This document shows, piece by piece, positions 8,861 to 60,170 of a stretch of DNA of 64,000 nucleotides. The position numbers were made by a program, and so were the translations under genes. The notes beneath the pieces are model-generated. The model had not been told where the DNA came from. It worked only from the letters and a program-made list of their open reading frames with translations, and did not search any database. This DNA is from a virus, in IMG/VR virus record IMGVR_UViG_3300002460_000021, positions 34,682 to 98,681 of that record. One strand, written 5' to 3'. Position 1 is the first letter of the stretch; each line of letters opens with the position of its first letter.

Positions 8861-8874
8861 AATATCCGGATATT
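8861..8874. repeat. AATATCCGGATATT palindrome, copy 1
   Basis: Exact match; lies between the upstream ORF stop and the ATG at 8848. Confidence 0.97.
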
Positions 8875-9118
8875 AGTCGGATCCAGTGGACTGCTCTGCT
8901 CCGGTGGTCGGTCGATTACAGTTAACGGCAGCCACGATCTCAGCCACGGATTCGAGCTCGGCGCTAATGCACCAGCTGTTCTTGAGCGCGTCCATAATGA
9001 CACGCAGCATACGTATTGTACCGCGCACAAACAACCAGCACAGCAGCAGCTGCTGGATGAATACGGCAGCAATAAACAGCACAGCCACAAACAGAGGGTC
9101 GCTAAACAAATCGTTCAT
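8873..9118 (-). CDS. Small membrane protein
   Basis: MNDLFSDPLFVAVLFIAAVFIQQLLLCWLF hydrophobic segment; ATG directly after the SF2 helicase stop. Confidence 0.6.
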   Translation of the reverse strand: MNDLFSDPLFVAVLFIAAVFIQQLLLCWLFVRGTIRMLRVIMDALKNSWCISAELESVAEIVAAVNCNRPTTGAEQSTGSD

Positions 9119-9119
9119 C

Positions 9120-10637
9120 TTATTCCCTTTTAATAAAAACAGACCCACCCAGGCGCTTGGGCAGCACATTCTCCCACCCCTGCGCGGCGTAGTTACGGCG
9201 ACGAGCCACAGCACGCCGTCTAAACGTATCGTCAAATTGATCCACGCAATCAATTACAATGCCGACTTCCTTTCCAACGTCATTAATACGACTAACTCGA
9301 CCTGGCAACTGCCCGTCCTGAATTGGTGAAGCCATGCCATCCGCGCGAACAACCACCTGTAACAGAGGAAAATCTACGCCGGTACCCCACACTGAAGTAG
9401 CTATGACCTTAAGCACATCGCCTTTAGCAAACGCCAACCTGAGCGCCTCGCGGCTCTCGGCCGTCATCACTTCCTCGCCAGTACACATTAATCCTTTTTT
9501 GACATAAGCCTCAGCATCGACAGGACTAATGCCGCCAGACGAATAGCACAACTGAAAATCCGGCAGTAGTTTACGTAGATGTAGCGCGTGCTCCACGGTT
9601 TCAACTAGCACCAGCACCTGAATGTCTGGCCCATACGCGCACAACTTTTCAGCTATAACCTCGTTACGAACCTTGTTGCGCCAAATACCGTGGCGCTTGC
9701 GTGTTGTGTCGTTCGTCTTATTTGCTACAGGGTTATCGTCCATTTGTACATCTAGCCACTCAACGCGAATCGGCACAACCAAGCCGCGACGCAGAGCGTC
9801 GCTATAGGGCATATGCCAAATGATAGGACCAAACAGAGATTCTAATTCAGCGTCAGCGCCATCTAGGCGACCCTCGGGGGTAGCAGAGAAGCCGTAATTA
9901 CGGCTACGACGGTAGCGCGCCAAACCGCGAGCATATGTTGGAGCGGCCAGACGATGAATCTCATCGCCAATCAGAATGTCAGCATCTCCATCTGATTTCT
10001 CAAGTGAATCCGCTGAAATAACGGTTACACGCCCCTGGATACACTTAGTTCCATCCAGCTGACCGACGCCAGGAATGTTGCGGGACAGCGTAGCCACAGT
10101 CTTTTCGACTAAGGACAGCCCAGGAACAACAACATGGATATTAGCACGATCGTACAAAGTACAAATCATACGAATCGATTCGCCTTTACCGAATCCGCAC
10201 GGCGCACTAATGATACCACACTCATTGCCCGCTATAGCAACTAGGCAGTCGTCCTGACCCGGCCTAAATTGAAAATTACGTACAACGGCGTCCCAATTTG
10301 TAATAAATCTATCCGGGCGCTCGTGCGGCGCGTCGCAAGACACCAACTCGTACAGCAACTTATTGATTTCCAACACACTACGTACGCGCGGCCACAGACC
10401 CACCCCGAAACAAAGACGACCATACGTGTCATACTGGTAGAGATTGCGAGGGATCACTTCCACTTTAGGCAGCTGCACGCCAGTGACCGGATCACGCCGC
10501 TGGCTACTGTGGCGCCATTTCTTATACAGATAGGTCAACGGAGGTTCAACTAGACGTCTAACAGTTAGAGGCAACGCCTCCGGCTGTCCCGTAGACAACT
10601 CCATTAAATTTCCGGAACGCCTCACTAATAATGACAT
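9120..10637 (-). CDS. Superfamily 2 DNA helicase (UvsW/XPB-like)
   Basis: RPGQ, PCGFGK, DEIH, SATP, GTGVDFP, Q..GRVSR motifs. Confidence 0.92.
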   Translation of the reverse strand: MSLLVRRSGNLMELSTGQPEALPLTVRRLVEPPLTYLYKKWRHSSQRRDPVTGVQLPKVEVIPRNLYQYDTYGRLCFGVGLWPRVRSVLEINKLLYELVSCDAPHERPDRFITNWDAVVRNFQFRPGQDDCLVAIAGNECGIISAPCGFGKGESIRMICTLYDRANIHVVVPGLSLVEKTVATLSRNIPGVGQLDGTKCIQGRVTVISADSLEKSDGDADILIGDEIHRLAAPTYARGLARYRRSRNYGFSATPEGRLDGADAELESLFGPIIWHMPYSDALRRGLVVPIRVEWLDVQMDDNPVANKTNDTTRKRHGIWRNKVRNEVIAEKLCAYGPDIQVLVLVETVEHALHLRKLLPDFQLCYSSGGISPVDAEAYVKKGLMCTGEEVMTAESREALRLAFAKGDVLKVIATSVWGTGVDFPLLQVVVRADGMASPIQDGQLPGRVSRINDVGKEVGIVIDCVDQFDDTFRRRAVARRRNYAAQGWENVLPKRLGGSVFIKRE

Positions 10638-10645
10638 AAAGCATC

Positions 10646-59350: not shown

Positions 59351-59351
59351 A

Positions 59352-60107
59352 TTAATTGCCCCTCAGTATCTTTACTCGCGCGATTATGTCCGCCTCGGCA
59401 GTTGGCAGCGGCACAGCAACCAGTACCTTGCCGCCATTGTTCTGGATAATTAAAGCGGGGACGCTACCAATCTGCTGTAAGACAGGCGAAAAATTCTTAC
59501 GTTCTAGCGCCGGATCCCTGACGCTGTAAATTCGTGGGATAGCGTTTAGGTCGGCTAGAGCTTTGCGTAACGTAGTAGATACTAGCAGCTTACCCAGCTC
59601 GGGTGTGCGTTTTTGTGGGTCTTCTACTATAGTTACATGTAATTGATCGCTAGCGGGTGTTGGAGTTGGAGTAGGTTCAGGCGTAGGGCCTGGTGTTGGC
59701 GAGGGCCTGGGGTCGGGCGGAGTCACAATAACCTCCGTGCGTGCGGCAGGCGTCAATTTTCCATTAACAACGCCGACGCAAAATATCATGACAGTGGCTT
59801 CGGTGGGCGGAACGCTAACAATTAATTCCTTGGTTGTCGTATTCTCTTGATATTTTAGCTTGGGATGAGTGCCAATAACAATCCAACGTACATCTCCTGT
59901 GCACTTGGCTGTTACTAGTACGAAGCCTTCGTCATACGCCACCTTCTGTGGCGCGCTAATTTCTAGGCCTTCGACTTTAAATTCGGCGGCAGCTGCCGCC
60001 GGTGCAGGTGCCTTGTCTTTCTCTTTGTCCGCGCCGAATGCGGTAGTGAGAAACATCCCTGCTACAATCAGGGCATACAATATCCTTGTCATATACGGCT
60101 CCTTCAT
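59352..60107 (-). CDS. Exported protein with Pro/Thr linker and thioredoxin-like C-terminus
   Basis: Signal peptide; PDPRPSPTPGPTPEPTPTPTP; VPALII...GKVL...PLP. Confidence 0.7.
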   Translation of the reverse strand: MKEPYMTRILYALIVAGMFLTTAFGADKEKDKAPAPAAAAAEFKVEGLEISAPQKVAYDEGFVLVTAKCTGDVRWIVIGTHPKLKYQENTTTKELIVSVPPTEATVMIFCVGVVNGKLTPAARTEVIVTPPDPRPSPTPGPTPEPTPTPTPASDQLHVTIVEDPQKRTPELGKLLVSTTLRKALADLNAIPRIYSVRDPALERKNFSPVLQQIGSVPALIIQNNGGKVLVAVPLPTAEADIIARVKILRGN

Positions 60108-60156
60108 GAAATCTAGTACGAAACATTACCATTGGTAAGCGCCGGCTGTCCACAGC

Positions 60157-60170
60157 AATATCCGGATATT
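60157..60170. repeat. AATATCCGGATATT palindrome, copy 9
   Basis: Exact match overlapping the baseplate J stop codon. Confidence 0.97.

Follow-up and report, generated by a model that had tools for sequence, protein, structure and literature searches.

Location and form of the palindrome

Nine exact copies of a perfect 14-bp palindrome, AATATCCGGATATT, lie in the window, ie the whole 64,000-nt stretch of viral DNA that was analysed. The window is G000:34682-98681, where G000 is the complete contig of 98.7 kb. The contig comes from an uncultured phage with a genome of about 200 kb, of which it represents approximately 50%, and an identical copy of its terminase is encoded on a contig of 203,762 bp. 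The best cultured relatives of that terminase (Salmonella phage Arash and Vibrio phages D69, D181 and D148) are 27-30% identical to it. The sites and their surroundings are as follows, with positions given in the window.

8861-8874: junction copy, 14-bp dyad; the TAA stop of the minus-strand ORF 8873-9253 overlaps the first two motif bases, and the ATG of the gene at 8165-8848 is 12 nt after the motif
13718-13731: junction copy, 18-bp dyad; a terminator-like hairpin (13765-13744) precedes it on the minus strand, and the ATG of an SbcC/Rad50-like gene, at 13714, is 3 nt downstream
16995-17028: perfect 34-bp palindrome centred on the motif (17005-17018); it comes about 230 nt after the TnpB stop codon and 258 nt before the start, at 16747, of an HldE-like gene
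20841-20854: intragenic copy, 14-bp dyad, read as EYPDI in the gene at 20661-21494 (277 aa, minus), 180 nt ahead of the stop codon
23297-23310: junction copy, 16-bp dyad; the ATG of a small minus-strand ORF is 23 nt after
28099-28120: 22-bp dyad (motif 28103-28116) in a divergent region adjoining the large terminase gene (28611-30437, plus); directly before the motif on the minus strand is a G+C-rich hairpin (~28119-28144), and the ATG at 28089 is 13 nt after
42351-42364: intragenic copy, 18-bp dyad, read as QYPDI near the 5' end of a GT9 glycosyltransferase gene (41484-42452, minus)
54447-54460: junction copy, 16-bp dyad; the stop of the upstream gene (54463-54888) is 2 nt before, and the TTG start of the gene at 53004-54443 is 3 nt after, with an alternative ATG 63 nt after
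60157-60170: junction copy, 14-bp dyad; the TAA stop of a baseplate-wedge-like gene (60169-61821) overlaps the first two motif bases, and the gene at 59352-60107 starts 49 nt after

All nine copies reported in the first-pass annotation were recovered at their positions, and none appeared in 100 dinucleotide-preserving shuffles of the window. Allowing up to two mismatches added two sites only, at 49142 and 51232, which is near chance (0.17 expected). The annotation had proposed counting exact and one-mismatch copies over the whole genome; in G000 there are 16 exact copies and one with a single mismatch (none by chance), ie approximately one site per 6 kb. The dyad often runs beyond 14 bp, as had been noted, the perfect dyads in the window measuring from 14 to 34 bp, and in 11 of the 16 copies in the contig the motif is extended to the 16-bp form YAATATCCGGATATTR. 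Half-sites outside full sites numbered 9 and 5 on the two strands, compared to 6.4 expected per strand. This lack of separate enrichment supports, indirectly, the full dyad of 14-16 bp as the unit that is recognised and read as a whole; a Chi-like half-site was rejected on the same grounds.

Seven of the nine copies (8861, 13718, 17005, 23297, 28103, 54447 and 60157) fall at junctions between genes on the coding (minus) strand, where about 6.5% non-coding DNA would be expected to hold few of them (P = 1.6e-7). The contacts with stop codons and the closeness to starts that had been described are as reported, with TAA overlapping the motif at 8861 and 60157. The remaining two copies are within genes and both encode YPDI, again as described. 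That at 42351 is truly intragenic, since homology to relatives begins at residue 1 of the long ORF. Over the whole contig 11 of 16 copies are at junctions (P = 3e-10) and three to five are intragenic; most are 2-25 nt ahead of a start codon, and a Shine-Dalgarno sequence often stands between the two. If the GTG at 13798 is the true start of its gene, the copy at 13718 would also be read as QYPDI.

The suggestion that the copies cluster around a candidate origin was not upheld. The presence of six of the nine within 19.3 kb has a post-hoc P of 0.026 only, the copies in the contig are spaced, if anything, more regularly than at random (CV 0.65), and GC skew is negative, with no sign change.

Related palindromes in the clade

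A scan of IMG/VR for the same motif gave only scattered single chance matches, and there was no nucleotide match in the phage collection. Relatives were gathered through the terminase, at 47-55% amino acid identity. Several carry a dispersed palindrome of their own. In five genomes (G002-G006) it is TGGAGACGTCTCCA, present as 14 exact and seven one-mismatch copies in the 181-kb G002; the other four have 4-11 copies apiece, exact and one-mismatch taken together. Two genomes, G012 and G014, have (A/T)AGATATCT(T/A), as a related motif in G014; the counts in G012 are 14 for AAAGATATCTTT and 30 for AGATATCT. One genome, G013, has TTGATAGAnnTCTATCAA nine times and its core GATAGAnnTCTATC ten times, all ten at junctions just upstream of start codons. 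No dispersed palindrome was found in clade members G001, G007, G010 and G011.

An AGAnnTCT core is common to the TGGAGACGTCTCCA, AGATATCT/AAAGATATCTTT and TTGATAGAnnTCTATCAA families. The G000 motif is without it, and may therefore belong to a different system. The central four nucleotides are themselves palindromic in three independent families (CCGG, ACGT and ATAT), as a DNA dyad requires and an RNA loop does not, which fits a dimeric protein binding double-stranded DNA. From these comparisons it is most likely that each lineage of the clade keeps its own palindrome, that of G000 being one local version.

Selection on the sites of the relatives

The first-pass annotation had also proposed looking for conservation in related phages, and the relatives supplied an answer through their own palindromes. 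Among G002-G006 the 14-mer is exact in 46 of 53 orthologous comparisons (87%), with flanks that are 70.7% identical, and only 2.25% of control 14-column windows from the same alignments are fully conserved. Twelve of the 14 exact copies in G002 are intragenic and occur in all three frames (GDVS, xETSP and WRRL), at conserved positions 65-2241 nt from the end of their host genes. They align without gaps to ordinary residues of the orthologues, so these copies arose by substitution and not by insertion. In G007, the nearest relative without a dispersed motif, two aligned one-mismatch sites are occupied by unrelated sequence. In all genomes tested the copies were spaced more regularly than at random (CV 0.35-0.68; Fisher combined P = 9e-6).

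Judged by these alignments, selection is shown to act on the DNA word itself, whatever the reading frame or the gene borders. The purifying selection is demonstrated in the sister motif families and not on AATATCCGGATATT, because G000 has no close relative in the collections searched. Intragenic copies in all frames, exact conservation between orthologues and even spacing together point to selection on double-stranded DNA. A recombination site at module borders, one of the alternatives in the annotation, does not agree with sites that lie inside conserved genes of the relatives and are not insertions.

Probable docking sites for a DNA-binding protein

The palindrome is best read as a putative docking site, used genome-wide, for a two-fold symmetric, sequence-specific protein that binds double-stranded DNA and reads the whole phage genome. 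We put the probability of this reading, which is based on the selection on double-stranded DNA, at roughly 55%. The site would be placed in short intergenic gaps or written into coding sequence by substitution, and its reader would be a dimer encoded by the phage. The output would be genome-wide and control would extend beyond the adjacent gene: a protein might be loaded or spread along the DNA, genes might be silenced or timed over long distances, or the phage DNA might be organised or marked, in the way that KorB works from OB and Noc from NBS. Since most G000 sites are 3-25 nt ahead of a start codon, the bound protein would also cover the region in which translation or transcription of the next gene starts. 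A promoter, an RNA hairpin and a mobile element each fit less well. Points against docking sites are the junction placement in G000 and G013, where a local expression element would also sit, the clade members that have no dispersed palindrome, and the lack of the AGAnnTCT core in the G000 motif.

The earlier proposal of a site for a dimeric phage protein gains indirect support from the need for the full dyad and from the palindromic centres of three families, although none of the binders then named is supported. Its idea of a genome-wide site suits the relatives better than a promoter does, the sites there being evenly spaced and selected in any coding context; the segregation part is not supported, neither a ParA-type ATPase nor an integrase having been found (see below).

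A tentative alternative, possible but on balance improbable, is that the clade has an undescribed, genome-wide 'self-reading' system in which the evenly spaced palindromes are recognised by a phage protein that evolves fast, has so far gone unrecognised and differs from canonical ParB. Its specificity would drift between lineages, from the core AGACGTCT to AGATATCT to TATCCGGATA, and the sites might serve to load a protein that then spreads, or to label the phage's DNA as its own when it is replicated, packaged or silenced at set times. A candidate reader would be a DUF1016_N-like gene which occupies the same position in every clade genome.

Candidate readers

Two genes to the left of the window were considered as the source of a reader.

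G000:26864-27859: ParB/Noc-fold protein, 331 aa, 7 kb left of the window
G000:28826-29677: DUF1016_N-like gene, fast-evolving, constant in position across the clade

The DUF1016_N-like gene is a weak lead only: genomes that bear palindromes and genomes that do not both have it, and its profile matches the ParB helix-turn-helix at 10% probability.

The ParB-fold protein could itself be the reader, with the palindromes acting as loading sites like parS, NBS or OB and with no ParA partner. It is a member of a family with 356 relatives, and the family profile aligns with Spo0J, Noc and ParB chains of solved structure across the N-domain and the helix-turn-helix (E = 2.7e-9). The AlphaFold model (pLDDT 91) gave ParB, Noc and KorB as its top Foldseek matches, and the ESM Atlas agrees; a single-sequence structure model (pLDDT 42) was discarded. 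Proteins of the ParB family read dyads of 13-16 bp. The NBS of Noc in Bacillus subtilis, ATTTCCCGGGAAAT, resembles the G000 motif in being an even-length palindrome of 14 bp with A/T-rich arms and a CCGG-containing centre (PMC7383237), but the two match at four of seven half-site positions, and nucleoid occlusion at the membrane, a host-cell function, is not readily related to a phage genome.

Among the clade genomes examined, both the ParB-fold protein and the AATATCCGGATATT motif occur only in G000, a co-occurrence that amounts to a single genome. The family was not found in the palindrome bearers checked (G002, which is 88% complete, G003, G005, G012, G013 and G014). When the genomes were searched with Pfam ParB_N and HTH_ParB, no match passed the cut-off; the G000 protein itself goes undetected by Pfam alone. 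Conversely, no dispersed palindrome was found in four IMG/VR phages of 27-137 kb that have a homologue of the protein (27-32% identity). The CTP-binding box GERR (GERRxRA) is GNHR in the family consensus and DMNHR in the G000 protein, and the nearest motif copy is more than 2.8 kb from the gene. No AAA_31 (PF13614) match, ie no ParA-type ATPase, was found in G000 (~50% complete), G002, G012, G013 or G011, where the controls matched. Comparison across the clade thus does not support a tie between this protein and the motif, and we consider its role as reader doubtful. A parS-like near-palindrome 135 nt upstream of the ParB-like gene, with a 12-bp perfect core, is single-copy and within chance.

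No gene tracking the palindrome bearers emerged from BLASTP and phmmer presence/absence screens; Pfam assigned the candidates from these screens to glycosyltransferases and domains of unknown function only. Of the binders named in the annotation, nothing found links the Bro-N proteins to the motif, and the 310-aa protein called IS110/Tas-like has no Pfam or PHROG match. The transposase beside the copy at 17005, taken for IS110, is TnpB instead.

Alternatives at the level of DNA, RNA and mobile elements

A local DNA expression element controlling the next gene downstream (an operator, a roadblock or a phage-specific promoter element), or a set of global operators, would have analogues in the dispersed C1 operators of phage P1 and the stoperators of mycobacteriophages. 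It would account for the position of the junction copies of G000 and of all ten copies in G013, in intergenic gaps 2-25 nt before a start codon, and for the copies at 13718 and 28103 directly after terminator-like hairpins, where a new transcription start is expected. The 3' half of the motif, GATATT, also resembles a -10 hexamer. A perfect palindrome, however, has no direction, there is no second conserved element upstream, and where 3 or 6 nt separate the site from the start codon there is no room for a leader. The sister-motif copies of G002 are conserved deep within genes, and the junction motif of G013 shares the AGACGTCT core with those intragenic sites. With 93% of the genome coding, junctions may merely be the cheapest spot for a 14-bp word. 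We regard a local element as unlikely.

Considerably less probable still is an RNA element, ie a short hairpin in a polycistronic mRNA acting as a processing site or bound by a translational regulator. In its favour, every copy lies in transcribed DNA, almost all genes share one strand, and many copies are just 5' of ribosome-binding sites. The stem, however, would be just five or six A-U-rich pairs, and its 'loop' is self-complementary in three independent motif families. Conservation is of the exact sequence only, with no covariation found; the apparent U-G pairs at -1/+1 result from overlapping TAA stops, and no Rfam match was found in the window.

Least credible is a sequence left or targeted by a mobile element or recombination system (REP/MITE-like, related to TnpB/IS605, or a cassette border), which the perfect identity of the G000 copies, the HNH endonuclease genes nearby and the 34-bp palindrome downstream of an intact TnpB gene might suggest, but which is at odds with intragenic sister-family copies at old, conserved positions through which orthologues align, with a length, 14 bp, that is not a multiple of three, and with the fact that one of 16 copies is near TnpB, whose bacterial relatives are at most 50% identical.

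Comparison with known systems

On the IncP plasmid RK2, the OB core TTTAGCGGCTAAA is repeated around the replicon, both near and far from promoters, and KorB, a ParB-family dimer, loads at OB and acts at a distance (PMC11790492). G000 is alike in having one short palindrome repeated round a mobile replicon. It differs in that its reader is putative only, that no KorA or ParA (IncC) partner was found, and that in its sole ParB-fold protein the CTP box is degenerate, the protein and palindromes not occurring together elsewhere. G000 also appears to be a virulent phage of about 200 kb, in which, as in four relatives, no tyrosine integrase was found, and the sites of its relatives are often intragenic.

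The Cluster O mycobacteriophages carry invariant 17-bp dyad repeats, TGTTCGGNNNCCGAACA, at more than 30 per genome, about one third of them inside genes (PMC4351075). Their function is not known, a dimeric DNA-binding protein was predicted by the authors, and these phages have neither an integrase nor parAB (PMC4351075). The 16 invariant copies in G000, between and inside genes, place it in the same descriptive class, which is not a homologous family. The Cluster O repeats belong to another lineage and host, have a 3-bp spacer, occur once per 2 kb and are denser at one genome end; unlike that account, the motif in the clade of G000 changes in sequence between lineages.

The stoperators of Cluster A mycobacteriophages lack symmetry, follow the direction of transcription and are found in temperate phages with a repressor (PMC4351075). 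They are read by one phage protein, as the G000 sites would be, and share with these the pattern of many copies of one short site in short intergenic gaps genome-wide. The sites of G000, unlike stoperators, are perfect palindromes, in a phage where an integrase was not found.

Dispersed invariant palindromes were thus known in phages before, from Cluster O, without a function, and KorB-OB has only recently been explained in plasmid biology, as a sliding clamp by which distant genes are silenced. What is new here is a clade of large, uncultured phages of about 200 kb that keeps such sites under strong selection while the word changes by lineage. The clade offers a natural series for finding the reader by covariation, and raises the question of what a virulent phage would gain from a genome-wide DNA-bound protein. 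Because the comparative test fails to support the link here, caution is needed before a palindrome of this kind is credited to whichever ParB-like gene lies closest.

Two further classes of repeat were considered and rejected. For a restriction/modification site, no avoidance of the central hexamers (TCCGGA, GACGTC and GATATC) was seen in sequence beyond the motif. For a protein-coding repeat, the other repeated words in the relatives are collagen-like or fibre repeats that bear no relation to the palindromes.

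The repeat in the window and on the contig

The nine exact copies of the 14-bp palindrome AATATCCGGATATT reported in the first-pass annotation were recounted in the window and all were present at the positions given, while none arose in 100 dinucleotide-preserving shuffles of it. A two-mismatch search of the window added only the sites at 49142 and 51232, about the level of chance. The whole contig (G000) holds 16 exact copies and one one-mismatch copy, an all-or-none distribution, and half-sites that are not part of a complete site occur 9 and 5 times, where 6.4 would be expected on each strand. 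The repeat is real and strongly non-random. The dyad is extended by its flanks, as first described, and perfect dyads of 14-34 bp were measured in the window. A pyrimidine occupies position -1 in all but one of the 16 copies, and a purine occupies +1 in every copy; the two form a Watson-Crick pair in 11, giving the 16-bp dyad YAATATCCGGATATTR.

G000, an IMG/VR virus contig of 98,681 bp (GC 51%) whose bases 34682-98681 make up the window, has an estimated completeness of about 50%. Nearly all its genes lie on the minus strand, and about 6.5% of the genome is non-coding. Its recognisable products are as follows.

DNA polymerase, primase and two helicases
SbcC/Rad50-like protein
Large terminase
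Baseplate wedge protein
GT9 glycosyltransferases and an HldE-like protein
Bro-N proteins and HNH endonucleases
G000:8638-9813, left of the window: tubulin/FtsZ-family (tubulin-like) GTPase

The GTPase has no homologues among the other clade genomes examined. The sole one-mismatch motif copy, AATACCCGGATATT at G000:9828-9841, lies 14 nt upstream of its ORF start.

Read along the coding strand, 11 of the 16 copies fall in short gaps between co-directional genes (P = 3e-10 against the non-coding fraction). Six copies share their first two bases with an upstream TAA stop codon, and at most junction copies the next start codon is 3-25 nt downstream. A terminator-like hairpin stands directly before each of copies 13718 and 28103, the layout at both being hairpin, motif, then a start codon within 3-13 nt.

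Window 13744-13765, minus-strand sense: terminator-like G+C-rich hairpin immediately upstream of copy 13718
Window about 28119-28144, minus-strand sense: terminator-like G+C-rich hairpin immediately upstream of copy 28103

Window copies 20841 and 42351 do lie within genes and read (Q/E)YPDI, as had been noted, and so does contig copy 1408. Copy 42351 is truly intragenic, since the long ORF is homologous to relatives from residue 1 onward. The clustering proposed around a candidate origin found no support: its P value of 0.026 was post hoc, the copies are spaced more evenly over the contig than random placement would give, and the GC skew never changes sign.

Sister palindromes in uncultured relatives

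Among cultured phages the G000 terminase has its closest relatives in Salmonella phage Arash and Vibrio phage D69, at just 27-30% identity, with 23% to SPO1-like phages; its uncultured relatives number in the hundreds and come from contigs 150-220 kb long. Regions surrounding homologues of the terminase (47-55% amino acid identity) were fetched, then whole records. The main result of the analysis is that relatives of G000 have dispersed palindromes of their own.

Dispersed palindromes in G000 and its relatives (length; GC; motif; copies)
G000; 98.7 kb; 51%; AATATCCGGATATT; 16 exact and 1 one-mismatch
G002; 181 kb; 44%; TGGAGACGTCTCCA (up to AGTGGAGACGTCTCCACT); 14 exact and 7 one-mismatch
G003-G006; 27-75 kb; 41-44%; TGGAGACGTCTCCA, as G002; 4-11 each (exact and one-mismatch)
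G012; 153 kb; 60%; AAAGATATCTTT / AGATATCT; 14 / 30
G014; 46 kb; 60%; ATAGATATCTAT / AGATATCT; 4 / 10
G013; 155 kb; 40%; TTGATAGAnnTCTATCAA (core GATAGAnnTCTATC); 9 (core 10)

An AGAnnTCT core is common to the motifs of G002-G006, G012/G014 and G013, and is absent from AATATCCGGATATT. No repeated palindromes were found in G001 and G010; G007 and G011 have clustered, iteron-like repeats only.

Genes in the relatives were called by a simple longest-ORF procedure, and for the key G002 sites within genes the calls were compared with alignments of orthologues. Twelve of the 14 exact G002 copies are intragenic, in all three reading frames (GDVS, xETSP, WRRL). The orthologue alignments pass ungapped through these sites, which therefore arose by substitution and not by insertion of an element. 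G002-G006 are only about 70% identical in nucleotide sequence, yet the 14-mer is exact in 46 of 53 orthologous comparisons, against 2.25% full conservation for control 14-column windows of the same alignments. At two aligned one-mismatch sites the nearest motif-less relative, G007, has unrelated sequence. In each of the six genomes tested, the copies are spaced more regularly than random placement would give (CV 0.35-0.68; Fisher combined P = 9e-6). A restriction-site effect was rejected, since outside the motif the genomes do not avoid the central hexamers.

What the sites may be for

Frames, origin by substitution, exact conservation, even spacing and palindromic centres together point to selection acting on double-stranded DNA for a putative reader with two-fold symmetry, regardless of the neighbouring gene. 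The best reading of the AATATCCGGATATT copies is that a putative dimeric DNA-binding protein docks at them throughout the genome, and that they belong to a family of such sites which extends across the clade and takes a different form in each lineage. A local regulatory role is a live rival, because the selection tests were made on sister motifs and not on AATATCCGGATATT itself, and because sites in G000 and G013 (10 of 10 copies intergenic or just upstream of a ribosome-binding site in the latter) favour positions just before genes. The same combined evidence from the relatives argues against a promoter, and also against a coding repeat. An RNA hairpin is argued against by the central four bases, which are palindromic in three independent motif families; a DNA dyad requires a palindromic centre, and an RNA loop does not. 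A mobile element is opposed by the ungapped G002 sites.

Closest in function to the G000 palindromes would be KorB and its OB sites on plasmid RK2 (PMC11790492). Among phages the closest descriptive precedent comes from Cluster O mycobacteriophages, which carry a 17-bp dyad repeat of no assigned function; its authors, too, predict a dimeric binder (PMC4351075).

Candidate readers

G000:26864-27859, left of the window: ParB/Noc/KorB-fold protein, from profile and AlphaFold model
G000:28826-29677: fast-evolving gene (product about 300 aa), at the same position in all clade genomes

Pfam and PHROGs searches gave no match for the first protein. An exhaustive HMMER search found 356 relatives, and a profile of these relatives matches Spo0J, Noc and ParB chains of solved structure across both the N-domain and the HTH (E = 2.7e-9). 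The top Foldseek matches of its alignment-based AlphaFold model (pLDDT 91) are ParB, Noc and KorB. From these profile and model matches, G000 does encode a protein of predicted ParB/Noc fold. Such proteins read dyads of 13-16 bp (PMC7383237, PMC11790492). This one is nevertheless unlikely to be the reader of AATATCCGGATATT, since family and palindromes do not co-occur in the other genomes checked, its CTP box has degenerated (to GNHR across the family and DMNHR in this member), and neither a ParA-type ATPase nor an integrase is present on the roughly half-complete contig. Homologues are absent from the other clade genomes examined, including the other palindrome-bearing genomes checked, and four IMG/VR phages encoding one (27-137 kb) have no dispersed palindrome. 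Members of the second family match DUF1016_N and, faintly, the ParB HTH; because they occur in genomes with and without palindromes, this candidate is only a lead.

Other repeats and elements

The transposase-type protein beside copy 17005 is a TnpB, not an IS110.

Window 17247-18524, minus strand: TnpB gene (OrfB_IS605, Cas12f1-like TNB and HTH_OrfB_IS605 domains)
Window 16995-17028: 34-bp perfect palindrome holding copy 17005, about 230 nt past the TnpB stop codon

The RuvC residues appear intact, no TnpA gene is evident nearby, and bacterial relatives are at most 50% identical. The 34-bp palindrome sits at the place expected for a TnpB element's right end and guide region.

A second word, TGCGCGGCA / TGCCGCGCA, is over-represented in G000: over the two strands it occurs 29 times (for example at window 5525, 15868, 20439 and 28005), where uniform composition would give about 0.75. 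All are intragenic, in three frames, 18 sense and 11 antisense. The palindrome TGCCGCGGCA occurs five times on the contig.

Clustered repeats in two relatives
G007 (loci L225-L234) 13649-13800, 29003-29090 and 30409-30500: seven copies of CCCTTATCCACGCACGCGTGGGTGAGAC in three clusters, period 61-62 bp
G011 (locus L242) 140579-140850: four copies of the parS-like 25-bp palindrome TTGACTGCCGTCACGTGGCAGTCAA (centre CACGTG) within 270 bp

Because CCCTTATCCACGCACGCGTGGGTGAGAC contains the DnaA-box-like TTATCCAC, the G007 clusters suggest a possible replication origin using host DnaA. The G011 cluster, in a genome without a dispersed palindrome, looks like a centromere or iteron array. A 204-aa protein (G002:136757-137371), for which Pfam gave only a faint mucin-like match, is 85% identical to its G013 counterpart, against 25-60% for other shared proteins, which suggests recent horizontal transfer. 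In G012 (loci L245-L252, the whole 153.7 kb; 60% G+C) GCCGGC is completely absent although a Markov model predicts about 119 occurrences, a deficit that suggests strong avoidance of restriction.
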